From Candidatus Omnitrophota bacterium (lineage in GTDB: Bacteria > Omnitrophota > Gorgyraeia > Duberdicusellales > 4484-171): DNA of 64,000 bases. This document shows positions 10,541-27,590 of this stretch, piece after piece. The stretch is taken from the NCBI GenBank assembly GCA_021735655.1, contig JAIPGM010000001.1:192001-256000 (forward strand), in the 5' to 3' direction. The notes beneath the pieces were generated by a model that saw nothing but the letters and a program-made list of their open reading frames with translations, ran no database searches and was not told the origin of the DNA. Every line of letters starts with the position of its first letter. Positions within the stretch are counted from its first letter, which is position 1. A program made the translations under genes and the position numbers.

Positions 10541-12890
10541 TTATCAAAAGTTTCGAAATCATCTAAGCGCGGGGGGTTTGATTTATGCTGTCTATAGAGG
10601 TATAAAATATTTTATTTATTTGCCGCAGAGGAGAAATTGTAAGCGTAAACAAAAACAAATAATGCTTATTAACGGCAAGCTAAGAATAGATTATTTGGAT
10701 AAAGGGATTGGCATGTCTTGGAATAATTCCCCAATTACCGAAAATGTACACTTTAATGTCGGGCTTAATACTTTAGGATTATGGACAGATTCTTCAAAGG
10801 CTCATTGGCAAATTATGGATCAAGGAGAAGATTATCTCAAGGTCAAGGTAATTTTCCAGGAGTTACCTTTGAGCCAGAATTGGCTAATAAAGTTAGAGGG
10901 CGACCACCAAATATACTGGAAGATAGATTTAGAAATAGAAGAGCATCTTCATATTGATGAATTCCGGATGGTTTGCGGAGTTAACCGTAAGTATAAAACT
11001 TGGATTAATAGCTTTCAGGAGAAAGTTTTTCCCCGGCTTAATCAATATTGGCAAGATTTATGTCTAGATAATGTTTTTACTTCTTTTGTGGGAGTAAGGT
11101 TTCCTACTGGAAACACTCTCTTGCCTTCATTGGTATTTGAATCTTGCGATGATAGCAGAGTTTTTTCCCCCCTTGTTCAAAATACCCCTTTAGATATTAA
11201 TACCCATATTATAGGATTTAGAAAGATTAATCACGAAGATGAAAGGGATTATCCGCCGGGTTGTTATCAGCTTTTTGCTGGCAGAATAAAATTATACGAA
11301 GACAATTATCTGTTAGATAAGAAAATAGAAGATGTGCGTCAAGATTACTTTAAGTCTACAATGAAACGAGTAAGTGCTATTTCCGAAGCCAAAGAATTAA
11401 AAGTTATGCTAGTAAATCTACCTTGGCAGAATAACGGGGTAGGGGGAGTAAGGGCTGGCTCTCGTTGGCCGCACATGAAAGATTTAAGCGAAGGAAATTA
11501 CTTACCATTTCCTTTTTTTCTTGCTTACGCCACCTCTCTTTTAGAAAAAAACGGTATCAAGGCTGACTTAGTTGATGCTATCGCAGAATGTTTATCCGAA
11601 GATAAGTTTATCGAGCGGCTTTTAGGAGCTAATTGTAATGTTTTAGTTGTTGAGACCTCTGTGCCTTCATTTTACCATGATCTGCAGCTATTAAGGAAGT
11701 TATCAAATTTTGGTTTTACAATAATTTTATGCGGTCCAAATTCTGAAATTTATAAATTTGAATTTTTAAAAGAAAATAGATTCATTAATTATGTTTTATT
11801 CGGAGAATATGAATTTACGCTTTTGGAATTGACGAAGATTATTTCTAAGGGCAAAAAAGATCTTACTTTTGTAAAAGGCCTTATTTGGAGAGATGAAAAA
11901 GGTAATATTATTAAGAATCATCCTCGGGAGCCTTTTGATATAAATTGTTTACCTTGGCCTCACAGGGATAAGCTTCCGATGGAAAAATATTGGGATTTAC
12001 CTGGTGATATTCCTCATCCTTCGGTTCAAATAGTTGCCTCGCGGGGTTGTCCTTTTGGTTGCAGTTTTTGCCTTTGGCCTCAGATTCTTTTTGGCGGAAA
12101 GACCTATAGAGTGAGGGACGTAACTGATTGCATTGATGAAATGGAGTACTTAGTAAGAGAAAAAGGCTTTAAATCAGTCTATTTCGATGATGATACTTTT
12201 AATGTCGGAAAAGCTAGGATGCTTGATTTTTGCAATGAGATTATAAAGAGAAAGCTAGATAATGTCCCCTGGGCAATTATGGCTAAAGCCGACCTTATGG
12301 ATGAGGAGATTTTAGATAAGATGAAGGAGGCTGGGTTACATGCGGTAAAGTATGGAGTAGAGAGTGCTTCGCAAGAGTTAGTGGATAGGTGTGGAAAATG
12401 TCTAGACCTTAAAAAAGCAGAGCAGATGATTAAATATAGCCAACATTTAGGCATAAAGGTTCATTTGACTTTTTCCTTTGGTCTTCCTGGAGAAACTAAG
12501 GAGACAATTAAAAAAACAGTTGATTATGCTTTAAAATTAGATCCACAGTCAGTTCAATTTTCAATTATTACACCTTTTCCAGGCACAACTCTTTTTGAAG
12601 AGCTAGATAAAAAGGAAAAAATTCTTACTAAGAATTGGTCTTTGTATGATGGTCATTATAGTTGTGTTTTCCAGCCGGATAACCTTTCTTTGGGAGATTT
12701 AGAAGAATCAAAACAACATGCTTACAGGTTGTGGCTAGATTATCAAAGGAAAAAAAGAGGATTGCTGGGTGATCTAAAAAGGTTCTATAATTATGCACAA
12801 AAAGATGGTTTAGGCAATGCAGTTAAGAAGACTAAAGATTACTTGAATTATTCTATTTTTCATAGAAAGAAGTTTATCGGTAAGATATGA
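10524..12890 (+). CDS. B12-binding radical SAM (class B) enzyme with N-terminal copy of the Wzt repeat module
   Basis: TTG start at 10524 with AGGGGGA 9 nt upstream. The repeat module spans nt ~10660-10950. The B12-binding-like region is KVMLVNLPWQ...LAYATSLLEKNGIKADLVD. The rSAM CxxxCxxC is ASRGCPFGCSFC at ~12046-12075. Confidence 0.75.
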   Translation: MRLGSNYQKFRNHLSAGGLIYAVYRGIKYFIYLPQRRNCKRKQKQIMLINGKLRIDYLDKGIGMSWNNSPITENVHFNVGLNTLGLWTDSSKAHWQIMDQGEDYLKVKVIFQELPLSQNWLIKLEGDHQIYWKIDLEIEEHLHIDEFRMVCGVNRKYKTWINSFQEKVFPRLNQYWQDLCLDNVFTSFVGVRFPTGNTLLPSLVFESCDDSRVFSPLVQNTPLDINTHIIGFRKINHEDERDYPPGCYQLFAGRIKLYEDNYLLDKKIEDVRQDYFKSTMKRVSAISEAKELKVMLVNLPWQNNGVGGVRAGSRWPHMKDLSEGNYLPFPFFLAYATSLLEKNGIKADLVDAIAECLSEDKFIERLLGANCNVLVVETSVPSFYHDLQLLRKLSNFGFTIILCGPNSEIYKFEFLKENRFINYVLFGEYEFTLLELTKIISKGKKDLTFVKGLIWRDEKGNIIKNHPREPFDINCLPWPHRDKLPMEKYWDLPGDIPHPSVQIVASRGCPFGCSFCLWPQILFGGKTYRVRDVTDCIDEMEYLVREKGFKSVYFDDDTFNVGKARMLDFCNEIIKRKLDNVPWAIMAKADLMDEEILDKMKEAGLHAVKYGVESASQELVDRCGKCLDLKKAEQMIKYSQHLGIKVHLTFSFGLPGETKETIKKTVDYALKLDPQSVQFSIITPFPGTTLFEELDKKEKILTKNWSLYDGHYSCVFQPDNLSLGDLEESKQHAYRLWLDYQRKKRGLLGDLKRFYNYAQKDGLGNAVKKTKDYLNYSIFHRKKFIGKI

Positions 12891-15800
12891 AGAATTATCT
12901 AGTCACCTGGGATAAAATATGTAAGGGTATAACTAAGCAAAAGAAGATATTTTGTGGCCCACACACTGTCCAAATAGATTTAACCGACAAATGCAATAGT
13001 AGCTGCGTTGCTTGTTGGATTCACTCACCTTTAGTTGAGGAAAAAAAATCATTTCCAGAAGGCAAAAAACAACTTTCTTTCGAATTAGTTAAAAGTTTGA
13101 TTAATGATTTGTCTGATTTAGGAACTCAGGAGGTAATTTTATCCGGATCAGGGGAGCCATTTTTATATCCAGAAATAAAAGAGGTTATAAAAAATATAAA
13201 GTCAAAAAATATGTATCTAAATATAATTACCAATGCTTCTCTTATCGATGAGGAAATGGCAGAGCTGTTAGTAAAATGCAAAGTCGATTTAATTACTGCC
13301 AGCATATGGGCCGGTGATGCTGAAACTTACAGCTTAACTCATCCAGGAAAAAGCGAAGCTGATTTCGAAAAAATAAAGAGTAACTTAAAGAAATTGGCTT
13401 TTTATAAGAAGCGGTATGGTTCATTGGAGCCGCATTTAAAATTATATAATGTAATTTGCAGTAAAAATTATAGAAATATTGAGGAAATGGTTGATTTTGC
13501 TAAATCAATGGATGCCGATTCTTTAGAGTTTCAGGTTGTTGATATAATTTCTGGGAAAACAGATCATTTGGCCCTGAAAGATGCCTATAAGAGCGAGATA
13601 GTAAATCAATTGGACAATATAAGAAAGCGAAAAGATTTAATATCTTTTAATACGCCTAAAGAAATGCCGATAGATAGTTTTATTGATGAGGAATTTTTTG
13701 ATTTTGGAAAGATTTGGAAAAATTACAAAAACGGCTTTTGCGTTTCTCAGTGTAGCAGTTCTTTGGTTTGCAAAAAAGATCACGAGATAAAAGATAAGAG
13801 AATTATTGTTTCAGAGTCGACATCAACCAGAGGGACTCGTCCGGTTGCATTTTGGTATAAATTTGAAAATAATATATGTAAAACTTGCGAGGAAAATATT
13901 GAGTGCGTTGACGATGAAAATGCAGTGAGCATAAAATTGTTGAATATGTTGGGTATTGGTTCATTTTTGAGGAGATTATTGCGCTCTGATTTAGAGAGAG
14001 GGATATATGAAAAGCAAATAAATAGCATCCCATGTTATATAGGGTGGTATTATTCTCGTATTTTAGCTAATGGTGATGTTATCCCTTGTTGCAAGGCAGG
14101 TAAGTTATCTTTAGGTAATATTAAGAAAAGAACTTTTTCTAAAATTTGGCATTCCTATCGATATAAAAAGTTTCGGCTTAACGCTAAGAATTTAACTAAG
14201 CATCATAAGTATTTTTCTAACATCAATTGCATCAAGAGTTGCGATAATTGGGGAGTAAATTTAGAAATCGACGGGAGATTGAAGGAATTTGAAAATAAAG
14301 AGAAAAAAAAGGAGCCTTACCTTTTAACTATCAAGAATAGCATTATAAAGGGTAGGGTTGAGGATACGCTTGCAAAAATTACTCGTAATATTAAACCGAA
14401 TAATTTAAAAAAGAGATATTCAGAAATTTTAGGTGTATTTGATGGTGAACATGGTTATAAAGGTCCATTCCACGTTCAGATAGACTTGACTAATGATTGC
14501 AATAACACTTGCATTGCTTGTTGGTGCAATTCACCTCTTTTGAAAGAGAAACGATTATCGGCTGATAAAAAAAATCAATATTTACCTTTAGGAATGGTAA
14601 AGGAATTATTGGATGAGATTACTAATATGGGTGCTACTGAGGTCTATTATTCAGGAAGTGGTGAACCATTTATGCATCCAGCGATTATGGAGATTCTCGA
14701 TTATTCAAAAAAGAAAGGTTTAATCTGTCACGTAAATACTAATTTTACTCTTCTTAATCAAGAAAAGATAGATTGCTTAATCGATATGGAGGTTGACCAT
14801 CTTACGGTGAGTGTTTGGGCGGCTACGGCCGAAACTTATGCAAAAACTCATCCTAATAAAACCGAGGCTGACTTTCAACGGATAAAAGAGAATTTACTAT
14901 ATCTGAACTTACGAAAGAAAAGTAAGCCCTGTATAAAAATTTATAACGTTATTTTTAACATGAATTACCTTGAAGTTGAGAAGATGCTTGATTTTGCCGT
15001 TGAGACTAAATCTGAATCTTTAGAATTTACCCTTGTAGATACTATGCCTGGGGCTACTGATATGCTTGCTTTAAATCAAGGACAGTTGGATGAGCTTAAT
15101 GATTTATGCAGGAAAATAAAATTAAAATTAGATAAAAATTACATAATTAGGAGTAAAAAGGTATTGCTTTTTCAGTTTGAGCAGTTTTTGAGAAGGATTT
15201 CTGTTTCTCAAGATGTCCAGGAGGCAAAATACGATAGAGGTGTTATTGATAGTATGCCTTGTTATATTGGTTGGCTTTTTGCACGAATAATTCCTAACGG
15301 GGAAGTTCATTCTTGTCTTAAGGCGCATAGAATTCCGACCGGTTCTTTGTATAAAGATAGATTTTTCGAAATTTGGAATAGTGCTAAACAGGCACATTTT
15401 CGTAAAAAGACTTTAGTTTGCAGAAAAGATGATCCTTTCTTTAGGTTGATTGGCAACGATCCCAATACAAAGGAGGCCGGTTGTTACAAGAGTTGCGATG
15501 ATATCGGGAGGAACACTTGGATGCATAACAAGATGAATATGTTGACGCCACTGGGAAGGCTGACACTTAAGTACGTAGCTAAAGCCATGAAGCCTCTAAG
15601 GAGGCTTAGGTCCAAAAACGATAATTTTAAGAATTACCACAGTGACCCTTTAATTGCCGGGGTCATCCATGGCCGGAAGGCTTTTTTGGGACCCGAACAA
15701 GTAGTAATTGATCCGACCAATAAGTGTAATTTGCAATGCATTTCTTGTTGGATGTATTCGCCATTATTGAAAAAAAATAAACCAGCTTTGGATTTATTGA

Positions 15801-16741
15801 AACAAGAATTATCTAAAGAGGTACTTATTAAATTAATCGATGATTTAGCTGATTTAGGAACAAAGCGTATTAGGTTCACTGGTGGCGGAGAGCCTTTTAT
15901 GCATAAAGATTTGATGACAGTAATAGAGCATGCCCGAAAAAAGAATATTTTAGTTGCGGTAACTACGAACTTTGGTTTGGTCTCTAGACAGGATATTCTT
16001 AGATTGTGTGATTTGGGATTGGAGGAGTTATGCATAAGCATTTGGGGTTCTTCATCGAGAGTCTACAATTTGGTTCATCCTGGTACCGGTGAGGATTATT
16101 TTAAGAAATTAAAAGAAAATCTTTCTTATTTGAAAGGGCTAAATAAGTATAAACCGCGGACTACCTTTGCTAATGTAATCATGAATAATAATTTCACTGA
16201 TTTTGAAGCAATGTATGATTTTGCTTTAGATCATGGAGCTGATGCAGCCTATTTTACCTTGGTTGATATTATTTCCGGTCAAACCGATAAGTTCTTGTTG
16301 AATAAAGATGAACGAAGCGAATTGCTAAAGAGAGCTCTTATGGTTCAGCAACGAAATAAAGATAACAAGCTGCAGCTTGAATTTTTTGAGAATTTTCTAA
16401 AAAGAGTATCTAGTTTCCAAGGAGACTTTGAAAAAGGAGAATATGATAAATCGAGCATTGATCAATTGCCTTGTTATGCCGGCTGGATTTTTTCAAGAGT
16501 TTTGGCAGACGGAAGCGTTGCGCCCTGCTGCCGGGGGGTTAAAAAAATAATCGGCAACATCAAGACTAAATCTTTTAAAGATATTTGGTTTTCGCCCGAA
16601 TACAATGAGTTTAGAGTTAAAGCAAAGTATTTATCGAAAAGCAACGCTTACTTTAAGGATATAGGCTGTATAAAAGAATGTGATAATTTGATGCATAATC
16701 AGGAGTTTCATAAAAGAATAAATCTAAAAGAAGGAGGTTGA
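12887..16741 (+). CDS. Triple tandem radical SAM/SPASM(twitch)-type fusion protein (three complete rSAM domains in one 1284-aa polypeptide)
   Basis: Three CxxxCxxC motifs are present: DKCNSSCVAC (~12992), NDCNNTCIAC (~14509) and NKCNLQCISC (~15730). Each is followed about 330 aa later by a Cys-rich auxiliary-cluster region of the form PCYIGW...NGDVIPCC...GNI...IW...C..C. The ATGA overlap with the upstream gene indicates coupling. Confidence 0.8.
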   Translation: MKNYLVTWDKICKGITKQKKIFCGPHTVQIDLTDKCNSSCVACWIHSPLVEEKKSFPEGKKQLSFELVKSLINDLSDLGTQEVILSGSGEPFLYPEIKEVIKNIKSKNMYLNIITNASLIDEEMAELLVKCKVDLITASIWAGDAETYSLTHPGKSEADFEKIKSNLKKLAFYKKRYGSLEPHLKLYNVICSKNYRNIEEMVDFAKSMDADSLEFQVVDIISGKTDHLALKDAYKSEIVNQLDNIRKRKDLISFNTPKEMPIDSFIDEEFFDFGKIWKNYKNGFCVSQCSSSLVCKKDHEIKDKRIIVSESTSTRGTRPVAFWYKFENNICKTCEENIECVDDENAVSIKLLNMLGIGSFLRRLLRSDLERGIYEKQINSIPCYIGWYYSRILANGDVIPCCKAGKLSLGNIKKRTFSKIWHSYRYKKFRLNAKNLTKHHKYFSNINCIKSCDNWGVNLEIDGRLKEFENKEKKKEPYLLTIKNSIIKGRVEDTLAKITRNIKPNNLKKRYSEILGVFDGEHGYKGPFHVQIDLTNDCNNTCIACWCNSPLLKEKRLSADKKNQYLPLGMVKELLDEITNMGATEVYYSGSGEPFMHPAIMEILDYSKKKGLICHVNTNFTLLNQEKIDCLIDMEVDHLTVSVWAATAETYAKTHPNKTEADFQRIKENLLYLNLRKKSKPCIKIYNVIFNMNYLEVEKMLDFAVETKSESLEFTLVDTMPGATDMLALNQGQLDELNDLCRKIKLKLDKNYIIRSKKVLLFQFEQFLRRISVSQDVQEAKYDRGVIDSMPCYIGWLFARIIPNGEVHSCLKAHRIPTGSLYKDRFFEIWNSAKQAHFRKKTLVCRKDDPFFRLIGNDPNTKEAGCYKSCDDIGRNTWMHNKMNMLTPLGRLTLKYVAKAMKPLRRLRSKNDNFKNYHSDPLIAGVIHGRKAFLGPEQVVIDPTNKCNLQCISCWMYSPLLKKNKPALDLLKQELSKEVLIKLIDDLADLGTKRIRFTGGGEPFMHKDLMTVIEHARKKNILVAVTTNFGLVSRQDILRLCDLGLEELCISIWGSSSRVYNLVHPGTGEDYFKKLKENLSYLKGLNKYKPRTTFANVIMNNNFTDFEAMYDFALDHGADAAYFTLVDIISGQTDKFLLNKDERSELLKRALMVQQRNKDNKLQLEFFENFLKRVSSFQGDFEKGEYDKSSIDQLPCYAGWIFSRVLADGSVAPCCRGVKKIIGNIKTKSFKDIWFSPEYNEFRVKAKYLSKSNAYFKDIGCIKECDNLMHNQEFHKRINLKEGG

Positions 16742-16747: not shown

Positions 16748-17566
16748 TTGAATATGGCGGGTAAAGTGGGTGCTATCGATTTTCAATTATTTTTAAGAAA
16801 AATCAGCCTTGAGCGTTTTTTTCAAAGTTTTTATTATTTTAAATGGTTGGAATACCCTTTAGTCTACAATAACCTTGAACTAAAAGCAGGTGAACAGTAT
16901 CTCGATATCGGTAGTGGAAAGTCCATTTTTCCTCTATTTGTCGTAGCGAAAAATAACTGTAACGTGCACGTATTTGATGATCAGTCCATTATAAAAGACA
17001 GTATTACTTATTATCAGAGCAATATTAGAAAGATGGGGTTATGCAATATTTCTGGAAAAAATTTCTTGATTCACGAAGCTACAGAGAAAGGACAGCTCGA
17101 TTTTCCTGATAATTACTTTGATAGAGTTTCTTGTATTTCGGTATTAGAGCATATTAAGGGCAATGGTGATAGTGTAATGATGCAGGAAATATCAAGAATT
17201 TTAAAAAAAGGCGGGAGGGCTGTGATAACTTTTCCGTTTAATGGCAAGGATTATATAGAAGAAGATAACCCAGAAGGGGTAGGATATTTCCAGCGGAAGT
17301 ATAGTGTAGCGGCGATTAAAGAGCGGATAATTGATCCAGCCAATTTAAAGGTTAAGAAGGTTATATATTTTGGAGAACGTTATATAAGTTTTGGGGAACA
17401 ATACTTGCAGAATAAATTTAGAAAAATAAATTGGCTCATACCTTTATTCGCGCCTATTTTATGGAGGGTGTGCCATTATTATGAAGGTGAATATCGCAAT
17501 TTTTATGAGCGAGCAATAGATAAAAAAGGTACTGGCGTAGCGTGTATTGTTTTTGATAAGATTTGA
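16748..17566 (+). CDS. Class I SAM-dependent methyltransferase
   Basis: Motif I is YLDIGSGKSIFPL. The post-I acidic residue is VFDDQ and the motif II-like block is RVSCISVLEHI. RBS GAAGGAGG lies at 16732-16739. Confidence 0.7.
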   Translation: MNMAGKVGAIDFQLFLRKISLERFFQSFYYFKWLEYPLVYNNLELKAGEQYLDIGSGKSIFPLFVVAKNNCNVHVFDDQSIIKDSITYYQSNIRKMGLCNISGKNFLIHEATEKGQLDFPDNYFDRVSCISVLEHIKGNGDSVMMQEISRILKKGGRAVITFPFNGKDYIEEDNPEGVGYFQRKYSVAAIKERIIDPANLKVKKVIYFGERYISFGEQYLQNKFRKINWLIPLFAPILWRVCHYYEGEYRNFYERAIDKKGTGVACIVFDKI

Positions 17567-17591: not shown

Positions 17592-18464
17592 ATGCTGACT
17601 TTTCCTAAATATCTTTCAATCCAAACTACTTCTCTATGCAATGCTTCTTGTGTATTTTGTCCCTATAAAGATATAAAAGATGTAAGGTTCAAGACAATAA
17701 TGGATAGAGGCCTTTATGAAAAAGTTATTAATGAATGCAGTAACCATAAAGATATTGAATGCATTATAGTTTACATGAATAACGAGCCCTTAACTGATCC
17801 TTGCATAGTTGAGAGAATAAATTATGCCAAAGATAAAGTTCCTTGGGCTAGTGTGCATATCTTGACCAATGGAGCCTTACTTAGCGATGACCTGGCTGAT
17901 AAACTTATTGATTCTCGTCTAGACTGGATCGGGGTAAGCTTTCATGGGATCAGAAAAGAAACTATAGAGCGGGCAATGGGCATTCCTTATGAGATCAGCT
18001 TGAAGAGAATAACCAATTTTATCGAAAAAGCAAAAGCGAAGAAAAATATAAAGAACTATTTTATGCTAACTTTTTTGCGCCATGTATATTTGACTCCTCA
18101 AGAGCGGGAAGAGGCTATTAGTTTTTGGAGAAAACTGGGGATAGAAAGAATAAGCTATTTTGACGGGCCCATATCTCGGGCCAGCAATGTAACTAATTTA
18201 CCAAAAGTCTACCATCAAGGCAAGATCAGTGGATGTAATTCTATCTGGGCTGATGAGATGCTTCATGTGGTAGAGGATGGTAAGGTTATTTTGTGCTGCA
18301 TGGATTGGCGAAGAGAAGTAATTTTAGGCGACCTAAACAAACAAAGCATCCATGAAATATGGAATGGCAAAAGAAGAAAGATTTGGGATATGATTCGTGG
18401 AACAGGAGAGGTTCCTGAAGGATTTTTGTGCCGCAGGTGCGAAGAGGCTAAGCAAGAGATTTAA
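17592..18464 (+). CDS. Radical SAM enzyme with C-terminal SPASM/twitch-like Cys cluster (same family as the triple fusion)
   Basis: The motif is SLCNASCVFC (~17634-17663). The C-terminus SGCNSIWADEM...DGKVILCC...LGDLNKQSIHEIW...CRRCEEA matches the auxiliary-cluster pattern of the 12887 and 39797 proteins. Confidence 0.75.
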   Translation: MLTFPKYLSIQTTSLCNASCVFCPYKDIKDVRFKTIMDRGLYEKVINECSNHKDIECIIVYMNNEPLTDPCIVERINYAKDKVPWASVHILTNGALLSDDLADKLIDSRLDWIGVSFHGIRKETIERAMGIPYEISLKRITNFIEKAKAKKNIKNYFMLTFLRHVYLTPQEREEAISFWRKLGIERISYFDGPISRASNVTNLPKVYHQGKISGCNSIWADEMLHVVEDGKVILCCMDWRREVILGDLNKQSIHEIWNGKRRKIWDMIRGTGEVPEGFLCRRCEEAKQEI

Positions 18465-18467: not shown

Positions 18468-20636
18468 ATGCTCATGAAAAATGAAAATTGCGAATTAATT
18501 TTTGTAATGACTCCGCCTTGGCAGACAAAGATGCCGCCTTTAGGCTTGGCCTATTTAGCCAGTTTTTTGAAGTCAAACAATATTAACGTAGATGTCATAG
18601 ATTTGAATGTGGATCTTTTTAATAATGCTCAAGAATGCCATAAATATTTTTGGGATATAGAAACAATAAGTAATTTTGGTTCGCTTCGGATTGCCCAAGA
18701 TTTTATTAAGGCATTCAATAAAGAACTTGAAAATTTTGTTGATCGAATCTGTAGTCATCCTGCAAAGTTGGTCGGTTTTTCTACTACGGTAGCTAGTATA
18801 AATATCGCCACCTACCTTACTCATCGGATAAAATCAAAAGATCCTTCGAAAATAATTATTTTAGGCGGGCCAGGATGTTTTTTGGATACTTGCAATATAG
18901 ATCCTGAAAGGGTGGTAGATATTTTTGTCATTGGCGACGGAGAGCTGCCTTTATTGGATATAGTTAAAAGATTTAAAGATAAACAGTCTTTGTCTGATTT
19001 GTTGGAGGTTCCTGGGACAATAATTTGTCTAGATAAGAAATATCATGACTTTTCACCGGCGAATCCTGTTAAGCAGATAAACGATATTCCTTTTCCTACT
19101 TTTTCGGAGTTCGAGCTGGATGAATACCATAAAGAACATGTTTACAAACCAATTCCAATTATTACCAGCAGAGGCTGTATAAATAAATGCAGTTTTTGCG
19201 TAGACCATAAGCTCAGTAATCCTTTTAGATTTCGAAATCCGCACAAAATATTTGAAGAGATAAAATACCATGTAGAAAATAATTGTAAAAAAGAGTTTGA
19301 GTATAACGATCTACTATGTAATGGAAATTTAAAGCAATTGGAGCAGCTTTGCGACCTGATCATTGAAAGCGGCCTGTCTATAAAATGGACAAGCTATGCG
19401 GCCATAAGGAAAGGTATGAGTTTAGAGTTATTTCAGAAGATGCAGAAGGCGGGATGCAGATTTTTATGTTATGGTATGGAGTCAGCTTCAGATTTAGTTT
19501 TAGATAAGATGAATAAAAGATATAATTCTCATACGGCAGAGGATGTTATTAGAAAAACCCATTCCTCAGGTATCGAGACAGGAATCAACATTATAGTTGG
19601 CCACCCCGGTGAGTCGAATAAAGAATTTAACCAAACTTATAGATTTATCAAAAGAAACAAAGACTACATTGATCAAATCACAAACCTGTCTACTTGTTTT
19701 TTAATACCGACTTCGGATTTAGCTGAGAATATGAGCAATTTCGGTATTTATTTTTATTCTCCTTTGAAAAGGATGCCAAAATTCTTATTTCGAAATAAAG
19801 AGCTTGAGCCTAATTATGAAAATTTCTGCGCCTATCCTCATAATACTCCTGCGATTAGAGCAAAACGAGCCAGAAAAATTATAACTCTTGCTTCAAAGAT
19901 AGCTATACCGATTACTATTTTGAACTATCAAAAGCAGCACGATATGGGTATGGGGGATTTTCTAGTCCAAACTCAAGAAGCGGAAAAAGTTTTTCGTTGT
20001 AAGAAGTTAAAGATAGACTTTAGTCAAAAAGGAAGCGGTAGGTTATATTATGACAATAAGGCCTTAACTAAAGACGTAGGCCTAAATGCTTCCTTTCATG
20101 CCAATGGGCGATGGTTTGATTCTTCTTCGGCAAAGTGTCGGGTAGCCAGATCCAACAGAGGCTTGGAAATAAGAATGAGTTGGCCGGAGATTTCTTTGTT
20201 TCAATGCTGGACGATAAAAACAGAAGGTGATTCTTCTGTCGAATGGCGGGTAAAAACAGAGTTTAAAAGGTCTTTGGAGCTATCTCAATATAAGATCGGC
20301 ATTATCTTGTCACAGGAATACGATAGTTGCCAAGTTAATGGTGAAGAACACCGATTCTCCGATAATTTTACCGAGAACTGGGAGGAAGCATTGTTTTTGA
20401 AGCTTGATTCGATAAGCATCGGCTCTAAGGGATTTTTACCGATGATGACCCTGAAGGAAGAATCCAAGGGTGGTGTGTTCGTGCAGGTCCATAATACCCC
20501 GCTTCACTTGCATACTCGAATGATTAATTTTTGCCGTTTTGGCGAGAACCTTAAAGATGACCACAGCACTGAATCTTTATTGATCAAAAAAGGTGATGTT
20601 TGGAAAAATAAGCTAAAAATAAAATTAAAGGTTTAA
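18468..20636 (+). CDS. B12-binding radical SAM (class B) enzyme with C-terminal copy of the Wzt repeat module
   Basis: The N-terminal B12-binding-like region is LIFVMTPPWQTKMPPLGLAYLASFLKSNNINVDVIDLN. The rSAM motif is ITSRGCINKCSFC (~19172-19200). The C-terminal segment ~19990-20290 (KKLKIDFSQKGSGRLYY...W...W) matches the Wzt module. Confidence 0.75.
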   Translation: MLMKNENCELIFVMTPPWQTKMPPLGLAYLASFLKSNNINVDVIDLNVDLFNNAQECHKYFWDIETISNFGSLRIAQDFIKAFNKELENFVDRICSHPAKLVGFSTTVASINIATYLTHRIKSKDPSKIIILGGPGCFLDTCNIDPERVVDIFVIGDGELPLLDIVKRFKDKQSLSDLLEVPGTIICLDKKYHDFSPANPVKQINDIPFPTFSEFELDEYHKEHVYKPIPIITSRGCINKCSFCVDHKLSNPFRFRNPHKIFEEIKYHVENNCKKEFEYNDLLCNGNLKQLEQLCDLIIESGLSIKWTSYAAIRKGMSLELFQKMQKAGCRFLCYGMESASDLVLDKMNKRYNSHTAEDVIRKTHSSGIETGINIIVGHPGESNKEFNQTYRFIKRNKDYIDQITNLSTCFLIPTSDLAENMSNFGIYFYSPLKRMPKFLFRNKELEPNYENFCAYPHNTPAIRAKRARKIITLASKIAIPITILNYQKQHDMGMGDFLVQTQEAEKVFRCKKLKIDFSQKGSGRLYYDNKALTKDVGLNASFHANGRWFDSSSAKCRVARSNRGLEIRMSWPEISLFQCWTIKTEGDSSVEWRVKTEFKRSLELSQYKIGIILSQEYDSCQVNGEEHRFSDNFTENWEEALFLKLDSISIGSKGFLPMMTLKEESKGGVFVQVHNTPLHLHTRMINFCRFGENLKDDHSTESLLIKKGDVWKNKLKIKLKV

Positions 20637-20646
20637 AAATTTACAT

Positions 20647-23600
20647 ATGAATCTAACAGATAAAATTTTATTAGTGGGTCTTGCTCCTTGGGGAGTAGAT
20701 ACGCCACCCCTAGCCTTAGCTTGTTTAAGTACCTCTTTGAGGAATGCAAATATTAGCACTGAAGTATTTGATATGAATATTGAGCTTTACAATGCCGTTA
20801 ATGAGCAAAGTAAATATTTGTGGAGTATGAATTATTCTCATTGGTGGCGAGAGCCAGAAAGATATTCTGATATTAGAAAGGAATTAGATGTTTACATAGA
20901 ACCTTTAATAAAGAAAATTTTAAGTTTTAAGCATAAGATAGTTGGCTTTTCACTTTCTACTAATTGCTCTGACCTTTTGTTGGAGGAGATAGTAAAAAGA
21001 ATAAAAACTAGCGATCCCGATAAGGTAATAATTCTAGGTGGTGTTTCAATTTCAATAAATGAGCAGAGAAATGATTTAATTAGGAAGTTAAGGACGCAGA
21101 TAGATTACTGTGTGATTGGAGAAGGAGAAGAGGTACTTGTCGAATTGGTAAAGAAAATAGCTAGCAATAAGCTAGAAGATATAGGTCGATTGCCAGGCAT
21201 AATTAAGAAGGGTGAGTTTGAAGGAGTTAAACAGAGGGCAGAGATCAAAGATTTTAATTCGCTGCCATTTCCTACATTTGAAGAATTCAATTTAAAAAAA
21301 TATAAAGCACCCGTGAGCTTACCTATGGAATTTTCTCGTGGCTGCGTAGGTAGTTGTCCTTTCTGCGATTTTAAAAGCGTTTCTTCTGCCTTTAAGTCAA
21401 AAGCACCTTATTATATTATAAGCCAGATAAAATTCTATAAAGAAAAATACAATATTATTCATATGAGCCTATCTGACCCAGCAGTAAATGGAGATATTAG
21501 GGTTCTTGAGCAAATATGTGATTTATTAATCGAAGCTAACCTTTCTGTAAATATAAATTCTCTGGCAATTCCCCGCAAGGAAATGACCTTAGAACTATTA
21601 GAGAGAATGAAGAAAGCAGGTTTTTATCGTTTGGAGTATGGTCTAGAGAGCGGTTCGAATAAGATTCTCAAAGCAATGAGGAAAATATTTACTGTCGAAA
21701 TTGCCGAGAAAGTTATCCGAGATACTTATCAAGCAGGGATAAAAACATATCTCTATTTAATTGTGGGTTATCCACAGGAGACAGAGGATGATCTCAATCA
21801 GACCAAAGATTTTTTGAATAGAAACCGTCAGTATATTTCCATGATAAAGTCTATCAACCCTCTTTATGTAATGGCCGGTTCAGAGATATTTTGCAATCCC
21901 GATAAATATCAAGTCACATTACCGGCTAAAGATAGTGACAAGAGATGGTTTATTGGTGATAAGAATACATATTCTTTGCGAAAAGCCCGGATATTTGAAC
22001 TTAAAAAAGTAGTTGCTAGTTTAAATATTCCCTTTACCGAAGAGGCGGAATCTTTAGAGTTTACTGGAAACTCTTTAAATAAACAACAAGGAATCGTTGT
22101 AGGTGGAGGCAATCCATACGATAAAGATGAGTCAACTACAGAAAATAAAATTATGTCTAGAGGATATGCAGAACAAAAAACAGATAAATATAGAGATAGT
22201 TTTTTATTAATTAATTTGCCCCCTTGGGGTCAAGAAAATCCTCATATCGGAGTAGGCTATGTGTGTAGCTATCTTCGTCATAAAGGCTTTAAGCCATCGG
22301 TCTTAGACTTGAATAAGAAATTTTATTTGAGTCAGCCAAATTTTCAAATGCTCTGGCATGTAGAAAATAAAAACTTTTGGTCAAATCAAGATTCTTTTCC
22401 TTTGATTTTAAAATTATTTAAGAAGGAAATAGATAAGGCAATAAATGATATTTTGTCTTCAGGTTGCAGCCTATTAGGTTTCTCGGTAGTTGACCCTAAA
22501 GAAAAAATAACTATAGAGTTCATTAGGAGAATAAAACGTAGGGATAAAAGTAAAAAGATAATTTTAGGTGGTCCGGCAACTTCTACTTATGAGCAGAGAA
22601 AGATATTTTTGGATAATGTTGAGGAAGAGATAGATACTTTTGTGATCGGCGAAGGCGAGCAAACTTTGTTTAAGGTAGTAGACCGAATTTTAAAGAAAAA
22701 AGAGCTTAAAGGTATCGAGGGTTGTTGCAGCCGGGATAATGGTAAGTGGGTTTGTCGAGAAAGCGGTGAGATTGTTTCTTTAGATAAGATTCCTTTCCCG
22801 ACCTATGAGGAATTTGATTTGAGTCTATACGGTAAATCTTTCCTTGTTGAATGGTCAAGAGGCTGTAGGAGTAAATGCGCTTTTTGCAAAAATTATCGGC
22901 TTTTTTCTTCTTATCGGTCAAAGTCAGCTGAATCGGTTATGAAGGAATTGAGATATCATAAGCAAAAGTATAATGTAGATGAATTCACTGTAGTCGATAA
23001 TATTTTGAATGGTGATCTAAATACCTTGAATGATATTTGCGACAGGATAATAAAGGAAAATCTTCAAATTAGATGGACTGGGCAAATTGCCCCCCGCAAA
23101 GATATGAATTTTGAATATTTCCAAAAAATGAAGCAGGCCGGATGTTTTAAACTTCAAATTGGCCTTGAGTCTGGTTCGAACAAGGTGTTAAAGTTAATGC
23201 ATAAGAGCTTTACGGCAGAGATTTCTGAAAAAAATATAATTTTTGCTAAGAAAGCAGGCATTGAGACAGAAATTTTTACAATGATTGGTTTTCCCGGGGA
23301 GGCTGAGAAAGATTTTCAAGAAACTTACGATTTTATAAAAAGAAATGCAAAATATCTGGATACCATAAAATCGATAAACACCTTACATCTAATAGCCGGA
23401 ACTGAAATCTATGAGCAGAGAGAGCGTTTTAAAATAAAGCCTTTACCTCAAGAAAACTGGCATTATTTATGGGAAACTTATGAGGGAAATACATACAAGG
23501 TACGGGAAGAAAGAGCTAAGCGTATTCTAGGGTTAGCTTGCGATCTTAAGATTAAAGTTATGGAGACTAATATTATAGAGGGAAAAGAGCAAAAAGTTTT

Positions 23601-23805
23601 GCTTGAAAATCTCGGCTTATTGGAAAAATCCCTGAATTCTTTGCAAGAGTTACCAGAAAAAGAAGAATTTAAGCTAAAAAGAAGAAATATTAATAAATGG
23701 TTAATCCTGATTTTTGTTTCTTTTTACACATTTTTTTATATTATTTATTTTTGGGTATTTATGATTTTTAGAAATAAAGTTCTCTTGGGGGGAAGAAAAA
23801 AGTGA
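20647..23805 (+). CDS. Double B12-binding radical SAM fusion (two complete class-B rSAM units) with C-terminal transmembrane helix
   Basis: Unit 1 has LLVGLAPWGVDTPPLALACL... followed by EFSRGCVGSCPFC (~21331-21369). Unit 2 has LLINLPPWGQENPHIGVGYV... followed by EWSRGCRSKCAFC (~22861-22890). The C-terminus WLILIFVSFYTFFYIIYFWVFMIF is a predicted TM anchor. Confidence 0.75.
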   Translation: MNLTDKILLVGLAPWGVDTPPLALACLSTSLRNANISTEVFDMNIELYNAVNEQSKYLWSMNYSHWWREPERYSDIRKELDVYIEPLIKKILSFKHKIVGFSLSTNCSDLLLEEIVKRIKTSDPDKVIILGGVSISINEQRNDLIRKLRTQIDYCVIGEGEEVLVELVKKIASNKLEDIGRLPGIIKKGEFEGVKQRAEIKDFNSLPFPTFEEFNLKKYKAPVSLPMEFSRGCVGSCPFCDFKSVSSAFKSKAPYYIISQIKFYKEKYNIIHMSLSDPAVNGDIRVLEQICDLLIEANLSVNINSLAIPRKEMTLELLERMKKAGFYRLEYGLESGSNKILKAMRKIFTVEIAEKVIRDTYQAGIKTYLYLIVGYPQETEDDLNQTKDFLNRNRQYISMIKSINPLYVMAGSEIFCNPDKYQVTLPAKDSDKRWFIGDKNTYSLRKARIFELKKVVASLNIPFTEEAESLEFTGNSLNKQQGIVVGGGNPYDKDESTTENKIMSRGYAEQKTDKYRDSFLLINLPPWGQENPHIGVGYVCSYLRHKGFKPSVLDLNKKFYLSQPNFQMLWHVENKNFWSNQDSFPLILKLFKKEIDKAINDILSSGCSLLGFSVVDPKEKITIEFIRRIKRRDKSKKIILGGPATSTYEQRKIFLDNVEEEIDTFVIGEGEQTLFKVVDRILKKKELKGIEGCCSRDNGKWVCRESGEIVSLDKIPFPTYEEFDLSLYGKSFLVEWSRGCRSKCAFCKNYRLFSSYRSKSAESVMKELRYHKQKYNVDEFTVVDNILNGDLNTLNDICDRIIKENLQIRWTGQIAPRKDMNFEYFQKMKQAGCFKLQIGLESGSNKVLKLMHKSFTAEISEKNIIFAKKAGIETEIFTMIGFPGEAEKDFQETYDFIKRNAKYLDTIKSINTLHLIAGTEIYEQRERFKIKPLPQENWHYLWETYEGNTYKVREERAKRILGLACDLKIKVMETNIIEGKEQKVLLENLGLLEKSLNSLQELPEKEEFKLKRRNINKWLILIFVSFYTFFYIIYFWVFMIFRNKVLLGGRKK

Positions 23806-24962
23806 AAATACTAATGGTGCACCCCCATGATTTATTTGATCGGTCTGAACCTTGGACGATAAGAATTAAGAGTATAGCCAGAGAATTTGAGAAAAAGGAT
23901 CACAAGGTTAAATTGTGTTATTTCCCTTTAACTATAAATGAAAAACATTATCCTAAAAATATGGGATCTATAGAACTGATCCCCTTAGATCGAACACCTT
24001 CTCCGAAAGCTTTTATTATAAATATAATTAAACTTATAAAATTGTGTAAATGGGCGAATATCGTCCACTTGCAGAAATGTCATCATTACTCTTCAATCCC
24101 TACGGTAATTGCTGCCTATATTGCCGCTAAGCCTCTTCATTATGACTGGGATGATTGGGAGGAGAAAATTTGGTATGAATCCTGCGGTAGAGGTTTACAT
24201 TCCCGTTTCATCGGTTTTTCATTTAAAGTATTAGAGAGATGGCTTCCGGTTTTAGCTGATTCAACTTCTTGTGCTAGCAAGTGTTTGAGAAACTTAACTT
24301 ATAAGTTTGGAGTAAAAAAAGAATACATATTTGATACTCCGGTAGGAGCTGATCTAGATAAATTTAAGCCTAGCCTAAATGGTCAATGGGTTAAGAAAAA
24401 ATTCAATATTAGTTCAGATTTAGTTTTATATATTGGTCAGTTACACGGAGCCCAATACGTAGATATATTTATAAAAGCGGCCAATATCCTTTCTTCTGAG
24501 CGGCCGGATGTCAAATTTATGATTGTTGGTGAAGGTTTTTCGGAACATTCATTGAAACAGCTTACTTATGATTTAGGCTTAAAAGATAAAGTTATTTTTA
24601 CCGGGAGCATACCTTATGGTGATATTCCCGATTATGTTAATGCTGCATCAGTATGCGTGGCACCCTTTAAAGATACTGAGGTAACTCGTTGCAAGAGTCC
24701 TTTAAAAATTGCAGAGTATTTAGCCAGCGGTAAACCAATAGTGGCAAGTTTAGTAGGTGAAGTAAGAAATATGATCGGCGGCTGTGGAGTTTTAGTCAAG
24801 CCGGGGGATCATCATTCTTTAGCTGAAGGAATTCTGCGCCTAGTTGAAGATAAAGAATTAAGAGGTAAATTATCTAAGCATGCACGTAAGCGGGCTGAGA
24901 GAAAGTATAACTGGACCAACACGGCAGATTCCTTAATTTGCGCCTACAAAAAGATACTGTAA
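23802..24962 (+). CDS. Glycosyltransferase family 4 (GT-B, retaining)
   Basis: The GT4 C-terminal domain has the EX7E-type region EGFSEH...KIAEYLASGKPIVAS. The ATGA overlap with the upstream gene indicates coupling. Confidence 0.8.
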   Translation: MKILMVHPHDLFDRSEPWTIRIKSIAREFEKKDHKVKLCYFPLTINEKHYPKNMGSIELIPLDRTPSPKAFIINIIKLIKLCKWANIVHLQKCHHYSSIPTVIAAYIAAKPLHYDWDDWEEKIWYESCGRGLHSRFIGFSFKVLERWLPVLADSTSCASKCLRNLTYKFGVKKEYIFDTPVGADLDKFKPSLNGQWVKKKFNISSDLVLYIGQLHGAQYVDIFIKAANILSSERPDVKFMIVGEGFSEHSLKQLTYDLGLKDKVIFTGSIPYGDIPDYVNAASVCVAPFKDTEVTRCKSPLKIAEYLASGKPIVASLVGEVRNMIGGCGVLVKPGDHHSLAEGILRLVEDKELRGKLSKHARKRAERKYNWTNTADSLICAYKKIL

Positions 24963-26062
24963 TGAAGTTTGTATTTATAACTCGAGAAGGCCTTGAGAAT
25001 CCGGGAGCCAGAACCCGTTGTTATAGTTTATCGGCTAAACTAAGGCAAAAAGGACTAAGGGCTGATGTTTTTTCTTTTTCCGATAGGTTGGGTGCTAAAT
25101 CAGGAAAAGATGAAATTGATTTTACTTTTTTTGAGAAGTTTAAGCATATTTATAAGGGATTTAAGTTACTCTCAAAAGAAAAAGATAAGCCGATCTTTAT
25201 CGTAAATCGCTTTAATTATCATACAATTCCGGCATGGCTAGTTTCTAAGCTTAAAAAGATACCTTTGGTGTTTGATATGGATGATTGGGAGGCAAGAGAA
25301 GATATAGGGTATTATTTTGGACTATTCCCTAAGTCAAAAGCCGAATACCTTGCTGGTTTATTTGCAAAGAACAGCATGTTTTGTATTGCGGCTAGTAATT
25401 ATTTAAGAGATTATCTTTTGCAGTTTAACAAGAAGGTTTATTATCTGCCCACCGGAGTAGATACTGATAAATTTAAGTCCCTTGGTCGTAAAGACAAGAA
25501 AGATTTTATTTTTTCATGGCATGGTTCGGTGAATAGGATAGAGGTTTTAAAATATATAAAATTTATCATTGATTGCTTTTTGGCTATTCGTAAAAAATAT
25601 CCTTTTATTAAGCTGGTTATTGCCGGAGACGGTATTTTCGGAAATGAATTGCGAAAATTAGTCAAAGCTTCGAGTTCTAACAGTATAATATATGCTGGGT
25701 GGATTAATTATCGGAGTATTCCCAGTCATCTAGATAGTATTGATGTTGGATTGGTACCGCTTTTGGATAAGACCCGGTTTAATTTATCAAAAAGCCCGGT
25801 TAAATTATTTGAATATATGGCTATGGCCAAGCCAACCATCTCTAGTAATATCGGAGAAGCAGCCAGTATTATTGATAATGGCGAGAATGGATTTTTAGCT
25901 GGAACCGAGGAAGAATTTTTAGAAAGGATGGAAGCTCTGATTAAAGATAAAGATTTGGGTAAAAAGATAGGGGATAATGCTCGTAAAACAGTAGAGAAGC
26001 AATACTCTTTAGATGTCGTTAGTGAATCAGCCTATGAAATATTGGCTGGTATCAATGCTTAG
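24962..26062 (+). CDS. Glycosyltransferase family 4
   Basis: TAATG overlap start. The motifs are GDGIFGNELRKL...KLFEYMAMAKPTISS (EX7E-like) and GFLAG. The ORF-track start 24938 would overlap the upstream gene by 25 nt, so the ATG at 24962 is preferred. Confidence 0.8.
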   Translation: MKFVFITREGLENPGARTRCYSLSAKLRQKGLRADVFSFSDRLGAKSGKDEIDFTFFEKFKHIYKGFKLLSKEKDKPIFIVNRFNYHTIPAWLVSKLKKIPLVFDMDDWEAREDIGYYFGLFPKSKAEYLAGLFAKNSMFCIAASNYLRDYLLQFNKKVYYLPTGVDTDKFKSLGRKDKKDFIFSWHGSVNRIEVLKYIKFIIDCFLAIRKKYPFIKLVIAGDGIFGNELRKLVKASSSNSIIYAGWINYRSIPSHLDSIDVGLVPLLDKTRFNLSKSPVKLFEYMAMAKPTISSNIGEAASIIDNGENGFLAGTEEEFLERMEALIKDKDLGKKIGDNARKTVEKQYSLDVVSESAYEILAGINA

Positions 26063-26107: not shown

Positions 26108-26785
26108 TTGGGTTATCTTGTTGAGACGCATCAACTAACTAAAATATTTAAGCCACACAAAGGCATTGGTGAGAAGCTTAGAGGCTCAGCAGCTCGAACC
26201 GAGGTAAAGGCTGTAGATAGAGTTAGTTTTTCTTTAGAAGCAGGTTCCACCATGGCTATTATGGGTCCTAATGCTGCCGGAAAAACAACTCTTTTAAAAC
26301 TAATCGCTTCTTTAATTATTCCAACCAGTGGTCGGATTTCGGTTAAAGGTACAATTGGTTTGGTTACCGGGGAAGAGAGGAGTTTTTACTGGCGCTTGAG
26401 CGGTCAGCAGAATTTAGAGTTTTTTGCTGCTTTGTACGGTTTGGGAAAATCCGAAGCCAAGAGGCGAATCCAGCAGTTGGTTGAATTGCTGGGCATCGAG
26501 GATATGAGTGATGTTCTGGTTCAAGAGTATTCCTCGGGATACAAACAGAGGCTGGCTATTGCTAGAGGATTATTGCATGATCCGGATATCTTGCTTTTAG
26601 ATGAACCCACTAAAAATTTGGATTCTTCTCACGCTGAACATTTAAGAATTTTTATAAGAGAAAACTTAGGTAAAGAAAGCAAAAAGACAGTTATTTTTAC
26701 TAGTCATAACTTAGAGGAAGCTTCGTTTTTAGCGAATAAATTAGCAGTAATGGATAAGGGTTGCCTAAGGCAACAGGATAGTTGA
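26108..26785 (+). CDS. ABC transporter ATP-binding protein (ABC-2 exporter type)
   Basis: TTG start with AAGGAG 9 nt upstream. Walker A is GPNAAGKTT, the signature is SSGYKQRLAIARG, Walker B is LLLDEP and the H-loop is TSHN. Confidence 0.8.
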   Translation: MGYLVETHQLTKIFKPHKGIGEKLRGSAARTEVKAVDRVSFSLEAGSTMAIMGPNAAGKTTLLKLIASLIIPTSGRISVKGTIGLVTGEERSFYWRLSGQQNLEFFAALYGLGKSEAKRRIQQLVELLGIEDMSDVLVQEYSSGYKQRLAIARGLLHDPDILLLDEPTKNLDSSHAEHLRIFIRENLGKESKKTVIFTSHNLEEASFLANKLAVMDKGCLRQQDS

Positions 26786-26786
26786 T

Positions 26787-27590
26787 ATGGGAAAAATTAT
26801 AGCATTTATTAAGAAAGATTTTCAAATTTTTTTAAGTTATAAGCTATTTTTCATGTTGCGTTGGGCGGGTATTGTTATACCGGTTGTTACTTTTTATTTT
26901 ATATCTAAGTTTATCGACCAGCAGGGGAATATTGCCTTCAGCGAATATCGAGGAGGGTACTTCCCTTTTGTGGTTATAGGCTTGTCAGTATACGGCTATC
27001 TTCTTGTCTTGTTGCGTTCAGCTTCTGAAGGTATGCGGCAGGAGCAGATGTACGGAACTTTAGAGGTTATTTTTGCTACCCCGGTAAAAAGTAGTATCGT
27101 AGCAATTTCGGCAGGTTTGTGGAATAGTCTTATTGCTTTAGTTGCTATGGTGGTATGTTTGGTAACCGGAATTTTATTGTTTAAGGAGGGCATTGTTGCT
27201 TTGGATTGGTTTGCCTTATTTTTAACTTTAATTATGATTGTCGTTAATTTTTTAAGCATAGGTATATTGGCTGCTGCAGTAATAGTGGTTTGTAAAAGAG
27301 GTGATCCGATTGCTTGGTTTGCTAGTACATTCTTTGCTTTTTTTGGCGGAGTTTATTATCCAGTGAGTGTTTTGCCTAAAGGGTTTCAGAAAATATCTCA
27401 GTTTTTACCGATCACTTATGCTGTCAGGGCTTTGCGTAAAGTTATACTTGCCGGGGCAACATCTGTCGAGATAACTAACGAGTTAGTTGTGTTGTTTATT
27501 TGTGCAGTATGTTTGTTGCCTTTATCTTTAATTATTTTTAGTTATGCTGTGCGGCGAGCTAAGATGAGCGGTAGCTTATCTTATTATTAG
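26787..27590 (+). CDS. ABC-2 family exporter permease
   Basis: It has six predicted TM helices and sits immediately after its ATPase with a 1-nt gap. It has no similarity to importer permeases. Confidence 0.7.
   Translation: MGKIIAFIKKDFQIFLSYKLFFMLRWAGIVIPVVTFYFISKFIDQQGNIAFSEYRGGYFPFVVIGLSVYGYLLVLLRSASEGMRQEQMYGTLEVIFATPVKSSIVAISAGLWNSLIALVAMVVCLVTGILLFKEGIVALDWFALFLTLIMIVVNFLSIGILAAAVIVVCKRGDPIAWFASTFFAFFGGVYYPVSVLPKGFQKISQFLPITYAVRALRKVILAGATSVEITNELVVLFICAVCLLPLSLIIFSYAVRRAKMSGSLSYY

Follow-up and report, generated by a model that had tools for sequence, protein, structure and literature searches.

What would a single enzyme with two cobalamin-type radical S-adenosylmethionine (SAM) units be doing next to glycosyltransferases (GTs) and a polysaccharide-type exporter? 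The question is raised by one open reading frame (ORF) in a stretch of 64,000 nt from a Candidatus Omnitrophota bacterium (GCA_021735655.1, contig JAIPGM010000001.1, positions 192,001 to 256,000), here called the window. In the ORF listing of the window it runs from ATG to stop at exactly 20647..23805 on the plus strand and encodes 1052 amino acids (aa), with 100% identity to a database protein of a Candidatus Omnitrophica metagenome-assembled genome (MAG). We confirm that this is a genuine single polypeptide carrying two class-B-type units with intact motifs, a pattern far beyond chance. From the ORF listing and Pfam, the order along the chain is a first unit (U1), a linker, a second unit (U2) and a C-terminal tail.

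Two distinct class-B-type units in one chain

Pfam annotation placed each of two families twice on the chain, both above their curated cutoffs: PF04055 (Radical_SAM) at E 4.8e-44, and PF02310 (B12-binding) at E 6.6e-19 and 68.4 bits, where the cutoff is 32.1. The features of the class-B superfamily, a CX3CX2C core of the PF04055 type preceded by an N-terminal PF02310 domain, are present twice, which bears out the first-pass annotation, where two complete units of this class had been read within the 1052 aa. Such a cobalamin-type domain followed by the core is the "class I" arrangement of a review (PMC12931638), and each unit matches it. These features hint at cobalamin use by U1 and U2. AlphaFold2 (AF2), run on an alignment of 26 sequences, gave a model with a mean predicted local distance difference test (pLDDT) score of 86.2 and folded units at aa 5-470 and 518-985. 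The model, which includes both N-terminal domains, superposes on TsrM, OxsB, CysS, MgmA and TokK.

In U1, the Rossmann-like B12-binding-type domain (aa ~5-190; 20659..21216, on the plus strand like all features of the protein and of its cluster) has its best PF02310 stretch at aa 81-167 and an alternating strand/helix pattern in the AF2 model. It contains the strand/loop GFSLS (aa ~100-104) and an ILGG motif (aa ~129-132), with S102, G131 and G132 invariant in the alignment of relatives. The radical SAM core follows at aa ~220-465 (21304..22041; PF04055 and invariant cysteines), and its cluster motif EFSRGCVGSCPFC at aa 228-240 includes the CX3CX2C cysteines C233, C237 and C240 (21343-21366). 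A linker at aa 472-516 (22060..22194) is predicted to be disordered, with pLDDT < 50, and is alignable in only 3 of 25 other sequences.

The corresponding domain of U2 (aa ~518-700; 22198..22746) is defined by the second PF02310 stretch and the AF2 model, and has the invariant segments LWHVENKNFW (alignment columns 569-578) and GFSVVDPKE (611-619). Its radical SAM core covers aa ~728-985 (22828..23601; best PF04055 stretch aa 735-897), with the cluster motif EWSRGCRSKCAFC at aa 735-747 and the invariant CX3CX2C cysteines C740, C744 and C747 (22864-22887). The core motifs G(L)ESGS and GxPxE are kept in both units, and all six cluster cysteines are invariant across the 26 aligned relatives.

The homologue search returned about 60 multi-unit relatives, which fall into four main size classes: two B12 units (1028-1074 aa), an N-terminal radical SAM-SPASM domain with two B12 units (1306-1338 aa), three B12 units (1498-1542 aa), and a radical SAM-SPASM domain with three B12 units (1812-1837 aa). 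Up to six radical SAM domains occur in one chain within the family. The order that recurs is SP290 (in this window a separate 290-aa radical SAM-SPASM protein), U1, sometimes an extra unit, U2 and the tail. An assembly or frameshift artefact was ruled out, the multi-unit architecture and the tail being found in about 40 of the 50 closest relatives. The fusion is real, since the closest relatives with the same architecture come from many independent metagenomes.

A scan of one genome per species, covering 185,579 species, revealed only 66 loci. Most are from Omnitrophota, a part of these under the label Planctomycetia, and the others belong to Nanoarchaeota, Woesearchaeota, Calescamantes, Desulfatiglandales and other Deltaproteobacteria, Caldisericota, Cloacimonadota and Wallbacteria. 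Tandem fusions, called rare in the first-pass annotation, are the rule inside this family, which is itself rare.

U1 and U2 share 34% identity, and each is 33% identical to the unit in a 722-aa protein encoded upstream. In the relatives, identity to U1 is 42-62% for segments of the U1 type, and identity to U2 is 52-71% for those of the U2 type, with the second-best unit assignment far lower-scoring in every case. A recent tandem duplication was rejected on the low identity between the units and their separate orthologues. Because each unit has its own orthologues in other Omnitrophota, the fusion joins old and distinct paralogues. These separate orthologous groups, together with the 34% identity, suggest two different reactions or sites rather than one reaction repeated; of the "iterative or double" modification first proposed, the iterative part is the less likely and two different reactions are favoured.

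Glycosyltransferases, an exporter and a shared domain

Neighbouring genes were mapped in 50 fetched loci, where each region was assigned to its best probe. The order that recurs in Omnitrophota is an ABC-2 permease, an ABC ATPase with a varying number of copies of a ~200-aa domain (here X), an HpnJ-like enzyme with X, three SPASM units (S3a-S3b-S3c), in some loci a methyltransferase, SP290, the B12 units with the tail, two GT4 genes and a GT2 gene. A GT4 gene lies directly after the tail in 16 of the 22 tail-bearing loci. In Candidatus Kaelpia, one 1917-aa protein combines the HpnJ-like unit with the triple SPASM and adjoins a 1311-aa SP290-U1-U2 protein.

Similar company is found outside Omnitrophota. 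A Nitrososphaeria contig has a 1004-aa double B12 radical SAM protein and three radical SAM-SPASM genes (396-416 aa) amid glycan genes encoding Wzm, Wzt with the classical Wzt_C domain (PF14524), GT2, GT4, sugar epimerase/dehydratases and a PMT_2 GT-C protein. A Desulfatiglandales locus (L053) combines a 2778-aa protein with six radical SAM domains (9056-17392 of that locus) with a GT4, an 816-aa GT4-radical SAM-SPASM fusion (3176-5626), two NAD-dependent sugar epimerase/dehydratases and a PMT_2 protein. In another bacterial locus, a 1988-aa protein with three B12 units and a SPASM domain is accompanied by a GT2 and a Wza-like export protein. There are also direct fusions, of a B12 radical SAM unit with SPASM and GT4 (P0063) and with a DegT-type aminotransferase and a hexapeptide transferase (P0066), and relatives fuse these types of radical SAM enzymes to the exporter ATPase.

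The domain X occurs in six copies in the cluster of the window, four in the ATPase and one on each of two radical SAM enzymes, the HpnJ-like protein (10662-11303) and the 722-aa protein (19956-20633). It has no Pfam family even at E<=10, which also discards an assignment to Wzt_C (PF14524), and a word-indexed homologue search with the domain alone returned nothing. A HMMER profile built from the six copies matched 621 representatives among 1.84 billion proteins, mostly Wzt-type ATPases. ABC ATPases bearing two to five copies make up 85 of the best 150, and other matches have X fused to SPASM, HpnJ-like or B12 units; one 1856-aa chain (P0118) combines the ABC domain, five copies of X and a SPASM unit. 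The predicted fold of X is a supersandwich of the galactose-mutarotase type. As the exporter ATPase and two radical SAM enzymes share X, they probably recognise the same polymer.

The best-supported candidate substrate is a carbohydrate polymer at the cytoplasmic face, exported by the ABC system, because of the synteny across domains of life, the fusions to GTs and to the exporter, the shared X domain and the BtrN- and BlsE-like neighbours. BtrN is an aminocyclitol dehydrogenase and BlsE a cytosylglucuronate decarboxylase. The earlier idea of a glycan handled at the membrane is well supported by the same observations, with Wzm/Wzt and GT4/GT2 synteny from Omnitrophota to Nitrososphaeria and Desulfatiglandales.

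The core of the cluster in the window (6294-26062) contains only plus-strand genes that abut, overlap or lie up to ~25 nt apart, and the locus has the make-up of a Wzm/Wzt export locus, with a permease, an extended Wzt/TagH-type ATPase and GTs. It begins with an ABC-2 (Wzm-type) permease (6294..7076; PF01061 and predicted membrane segments), preceded by an amine-oxidase-family flavoprotein (4986-6293) that matches the UDP-galactopyranose mutase and HpnE models, both below cutoff, and that is a neighbour of the permease in at least three loci besides this one. The 1155-aa ABC ATPase with four tandem X domains follows (7073..10540), its best NCBIfam models being TagH and Wzt, below their equivalog cutoffs. 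Next come a 788-aa protein with an N-terminal X domain (aa ~47-260) and an HpnJ/BchE-like B12 radical SAM core (10524..12890), which scores 236 bits against HpnJ and shares only 26% identity with U1 and U2, and a 1284-aa fusion of three radical SAM-SPASM units (12887..16741), for which BlsE is the sole relative by sequence in the PDB. This triple SPASM is conserved adjoining the B12 units, with its parts as three separate genes in the Nitrososphaeria locus.

A class I SAM-dependent methyltransferase (16748..17566) is followed by SP290, with a SPASM/twitch auxiliary-cluster domain (17592..18464). The sole solved relative of SP290 by sequence is BtrN (E 2.8e-8), over the core and the auxiliary-cluster region, and many relatives carry SP290 as an N-terminal fusion to the U1-U2 protein. 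The 722-aa protein (18468..20636) contains the third paralogous B12 radical SAM unit and a C-terminal X domain (aa ~497-722). Eight radical SAM domains are thus encoded in five proteins. Directly downstream of the U1-U2 gene, Pfam identifies two GT4 glycosyltransferases (23802..26062), the start of the first overlapping the stop codon by 4 nt, and a second ABC-2 exporter pair follows with a 225-aa ATPase and a 267-aa permease (26108..27590).

The tail of the U1-U2 protein contains a helix at aa 1015-1042 (23689..23772) in the AF2 model. Its 24-residue hydrophobic core WLILIFVSFYTFFYIIYFWVFMIF (aa 1018-1041) has 12 aromatic residues and basic flanks, and the protein ends with LLGG and basic residues. 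The Hessa-scale sum is -3.4 kcal/mol over 23 residues, and +8 for the next best segment of the protein. The hydrophobic C-terminal helix described at first pass is recovered here as the sole predicted membrane segment of a protein with no signal peptide, so that by prediction this is a tail-anchored protein, otherwise soluble and cytoplasmic. A single helix may therefore tether it to the cytoplasmic membrane, a topology that we take from prediction. Being the only predicted membrane segment among the radical SAM enzymes and GT4s of the cluster (6294-27590), the tail may tether the whole enzyme set. Farther downstream, membrane proteins of the GT-C/PMT_2 and MBOAT types are encoded, and an unassigned ORF at 35495-36277 has a marginal membrane score.

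A similar tail ends about 40 of the 50 closest relatives, in two variants. The first has basic residues, KWLILIFVSFYTFFYI(I/V)YFW..M.LRNKVLLGG and again basic residues; the second reads LPRKR..KLPYL.LIL.LTL.AE.YLW.LKKLR..IIFPGS. The tail is always at the extreme C-terminus, whichever unit comes last, and directly follows U1 in P0043, P0046 and P0050. Neither variant matched any sorting-signal or anchor model of NCBIfam, and a signal of the PEP-CTERM, LPXTG or GlyGly-CTERM type was discarded on this basis and on the order of the motif (basic, hydrophobic, basic).

Candidate chemistry and its alternatives

U1 and U2 were scored separately against NCBIfam models with curated cutoffs. The best model for both is TIGR03975, at 132.6 bits for U1 and 155.5 for U2, below the cutoff of 281.85; the 280.1 bits of the whole protein are the sum of two units. 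The P-methyltransferases PhpK (107-147 bits per unit, cutoff 600) and Sden_1168 (85-103, cutoff 575; among the best models for U1) and ApyD follow, all far below their cutoffs, and then BchE, HpnJ (85-98, cutoff 577.6), TIGR04072 and the MCR glutamine methylase; HpnR reaches 41-55 bits per unit (cutoff 650). Among solved structures, MgmA/QCMT (9ccb) is the nearest by sequence, at E 3.9e-9 in the single-sequence search and 8.9e-21 in the profile search; OxsB (profile E 1e-18), AprD4 (profile E 7e-12), CysS and TokK come next. Foldseek matched TsrM, OxsB, CysS, AprD4, MgmA and TokK at 12-20% identity, the highest template modelling score (TM-score) being 0.74 for AprD4, with 0.73 for MgmA.

We suggest that the membrane-tethered U1-U2 protein is a subunit of a set of radical SAM enzymes that modifies a glycan before its export, with two cobalamin-dependent C-methylations as the likeliest reactions, and give this an even chance of being right. 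The two reactions would be different methyl transfers to unactivated sugar carbons, although methylation is only hinted at by the sequence matches. Under this proposal, GT4 and GT2 enzymes would build the glycan on a membrane (lipid) carrier at the cytoplasmic face, where the tail of the U1-U2 protein would hold the radical SAM set and the X domains would guide it to the polymer. In each unit, the 5'-deoxyadenosyl radical would generate a substrate radical that takes up a methyl group from methylcobalamin, with U1 and U2 serving two separate positions or two separate residues. Oxidation of a secondary alcohol could fall to the BtrN-like unit, and the SPASM units and the HpnJ-like unit could do further radical steps. 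The X-domain array of the Wzt protein would then recognise the modified polymer and the Wzm/Wzt-type ABC transporter would export it; pairs of GT2 and PMT_2 proteins and the MBOAT/AMP-ligase/GDSL set encoded downstream could decorate it outside the cytoplasm.

Several observations weigh against this proposal. No curated family cutoff of NCBIfam is reached by U1 or U2, and homology therefore does not settle which reaction they catalyse. The non-methylating OxsB and the cobalamin-free AprD4 match structurally about as well as the methylases; OxsB catalyses a ring contraction, and AprD4 is a diol dehydratase with a similar domain yet no cobalamin. The C-methylation of the first-pass annotation is for both reasons not established. 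The helix of the tail is flanked by about four or five positive charges on each side, which makes a simple N-in/C-out orientation uncertain, and the archaeal and deltaproteobacterial relatives are entirely devoid of the tail. Among the ORFs of the window scanned with Pfam, which included several without a family match and ended three ORFs before the 3' end, neither an initiating phosphoglycosyl transferase nor an O-antigen ligase turned up, though other parts of the genome can also carry such genes. In addition, all 66 loci come from MAGs and have no experimental anchor.

The alternative that survives best keeps the glycan as the substrate while one or both units do something other than methylation, such as ring contraction, diol dehydration or deoxygenation, or C-C cyclisation, with cobalamin as an electron sink or absent. 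Ring contraction is known for OxsB, and HpnJ and calditol synthase have been proposed to form a carbocycle in this way. The best matches of the units include OxsB and AprD4, the HpnJ and BchE models (85-98 bits per unit) score little below the methylase models, and the cluster already encodes a class I methyltransferase; in addition, several non-methylating reactions are catalysed by class-B enzymes (PMC12931638). However, the top NCBIfam model and the best PDB match by sequence are both methyltransferases, and the cluster has a separate HpnJ-like protein with only 26% identity to U1 and U2. We regard this alternative as possible but rather improbable.

A membrane lipid could also be the substrate, with methylation, cyclisation or bridging like that of Grs, Hgm, Hbs, HpnP and HpnR, and export of a glycolipid by the ABC-2 system. 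It would suit the predicted membrane tether and the amine-oxidase/HpnE-like flavoprotein nearby, and the units have weak matches to the ladderane-associated TIGR04072 (85-101 bits, cutoff 360). B12 radical SAM and SPASM enzymes do modify glycerol dialkyl glycerol tetraether (GDGT) lipids, and homologues of Hbs and Mss are carried by Omnitrophota (10.1101/2023.10.20.563219). On the other hand, the UDP-galactopyranose mutase model fits the flavoprotein no worse than the HpnE model does, X has a predicted carbohydrate-binding fold, GT4 domains and a sugar aminotransferase are the fusion partners, the HpnR scores are very low and relatives with no tail are common. No genes of the shc, tes, mss or plsA type were seen among the scanned ORFs, the search for squalene-hopene cyclase among the ORFs of the window scanned with Pfam being equally negative. 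A lipid substrate seems quite unlikely to us.

Least probable of all, and very unlikely, is that these enzymes C-methylate a ribosomally synthesised and post-translationally modified peptide (RiPP) like PoyB and PoyC, with the SPASM neighbours as peptide cross-linkers: the best model, TIGR03975, is named "RiPP maturation radical SAM C-methyltransferase", ApyD also scores well, SPASM enzymes are typical of RiPP pathways and a PqqD-like protein (32995-33288) followed by a radical SAM-SPASM gene is encoded 9 kb downstream, but both units score about half of the TIGR03975 cutoff, the core genes (6294-26062) have no small ORF between them and, with gaps of at most ~25 nt, no room for a precursor gene, no recognition element is fused or adjacent to the U1-U2 protein, the conserved partners across phyla are GTs and Wzm/Wzt, and the conserved gene order does not extend to the PqqD cassette.

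Comparison with known systems and other genes of the window

Class-B methylases such as GenK and Fom3 act on sugars and small molecules. Each unit resembles GenK, Fom3, TokK and CysS in its N-terminal cobalamin-type domain followed by a CX3CX2C TIM-barrel core, and CysS and TokK are matched by both Foldseek and profile searches, at only 12-20% identity to the solved structures. In TokK, the positions W76 and W215 set methylating active sites apart. While TokK and CysS methylate repeatedly with one unit and belong to antibiotic biosynthesis clusters, here two or three diverged units are found in one chain, in this protein two non-identical units with a membrane helix, in a Wzm/Wzt-type export locus. 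MgmA/QCMT (9ccb), an MCR glutamine C-methyltransferase and the closest enzyme by sequence, is a soluble single-unit enzyme of 450 aa with a protein substrate, ~16% identical to our protein at a TM-score of 0.73. With the proteusin systems of TIGR03975 (PoyB and PoyC), the best curated family, the cluster shares the many radical SAM domains that would tailor one polymer, but its units reach about half the cutoff, no precursor or recognition element was found alongside, and the partners are GTs and a polysaccharide-type exporter.

In the O9a system of Escherichia coli (WbdD/Wzt), the C-terminal module of Wzt recognises the terminal modification. ABC-dependent O-antigen systems of this type share with our locus the Wzm permease, a Wzt ATPase with a non-catalytic C-terminal extension and GT4 enzymes. 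The extension here differs from that of O9a in having two to five copies of the predicted ~200-aa galactose-mutarotase-like supersandwich, which is also present on radical SAM enzymes, and the tailoring is of the radical SAM type in place of a kinase/methyltransferase terminator.

Radical chemistry on sugars has precedents, as HpnJ and calditol synthase act on a lipid-attached hexose and BtrN, BlsE and AprD4 on sugars. The neighbours of the U1-U2 gene resemble HpnJ, BtrN and BlsE, although the cluster proteins are below the cutoffs of families of the HpnJ, BtrN, BlsE and AprD4 types. To our knowledge, the known sugar radical SAM enzymes act singly, carbohydrate radical SAM chemistry comes almost entirely from single enzymes of antibiotic pathways, and no known system joins eight such domains with an exporter.

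The superfamily itself is known; the protein departs from it in having several units in one chain, a conserved tail, a place in a polysaccharide-export locus and a shared sugar-binding module in its surroundings, and the cluster as a whole could be more novel than the protein alone. A literature search found no paper describing the protein family, the cluster or the X domain, and a 2026 preprint on Omnitrophota noted only the co-occurrence of radical SAM and GT1 domains in long proteins.

Returning to the glycan-modifying proposal, we tentatively suggest that the cluster encodes a membrane-tethered, exporter-coupled machine which makes many radical modifications on an already polymerised polysaccharide. 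Its enzymes and the Wzt exporter would recognise the polymer by the shared mutarotase-like module, not described before, and a surface glycan with unusual sugars, for example C-branched ones, would result. Candidate modifications would be C-methylation, oxidation, epimerisation or ring chemistry, a speculative carbohydrate counterpart of proteusin/polytheonamide maturation. Possible hosts of such a product, on the same tentative footing, would be Omnitrophota, scattered anaerobic bacteria and archaea of the DPANN group and Nitrososphaeria. A conserved locus in which eight radical SAM domains are coupled to GTs and to polysaccharide export would be a sign of surface glycans of a new, heavily modified class. 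The envelopes of Omnitrophota and of other uncultured anaerobes are essentially unknown, and some of these organisms are thought to live attached to hosts. Glycobiology would gain a new Wzt recognition module, and naturally fused, diverged class-B units would be useful for studying how a substrate is handed over.

Other genes of the window were also observed. At 32995-39882, a separate cassette resembling those for peptide maturation has the 97-aa PqqD-like protein, a radical SAM-SPASM protein (GeoRSP/ACGX-like), a weak HprK-related kinase-like ORF, a signal-peptidase-I-like ORF and a 477-aa TIGR04190-like B12 radical SAM protein, with an NTP_transf_5 protein on the minus strand. On the plus strand at 45092-50748, one after the other, an MBOAT protein, an acyl-CoA dehydrogenase, an AMP-binding ligase and a GDSL-like protein resemble Dlt- or AlgI-type systems for the acylation of extracytoplasmic polymers. 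They are followed at 50745-54760 (plus strand) by LarE-like (PP-loop ATPase), LarB-like (AIR-carboxylase-like) and LarC-like (Ni_insertion, 478 bits) genes and a DUF362 gene. LarE, LarB and LarC build the nickel-pincer nucleotide cofactor; these Lar-like genes lie inside the surface-glycan region, where no user enzyme of the LarA type was identified. Two adjacent paralogous 644-aa proteins, 35% identical, are encoded at 57260-61128 (plus strand). The first (57260-59194), the one scanned of the two, has no Pfam or NCBIfam match; the second is at 59194-61128. Over the whole window (1-64000), nearly all long ORFs are on the plus strand and the GC content is ~36%. The GC skew is positive in every 2-kb bin and the cumulative skew rises steadily, which places the whole window on one replichore.

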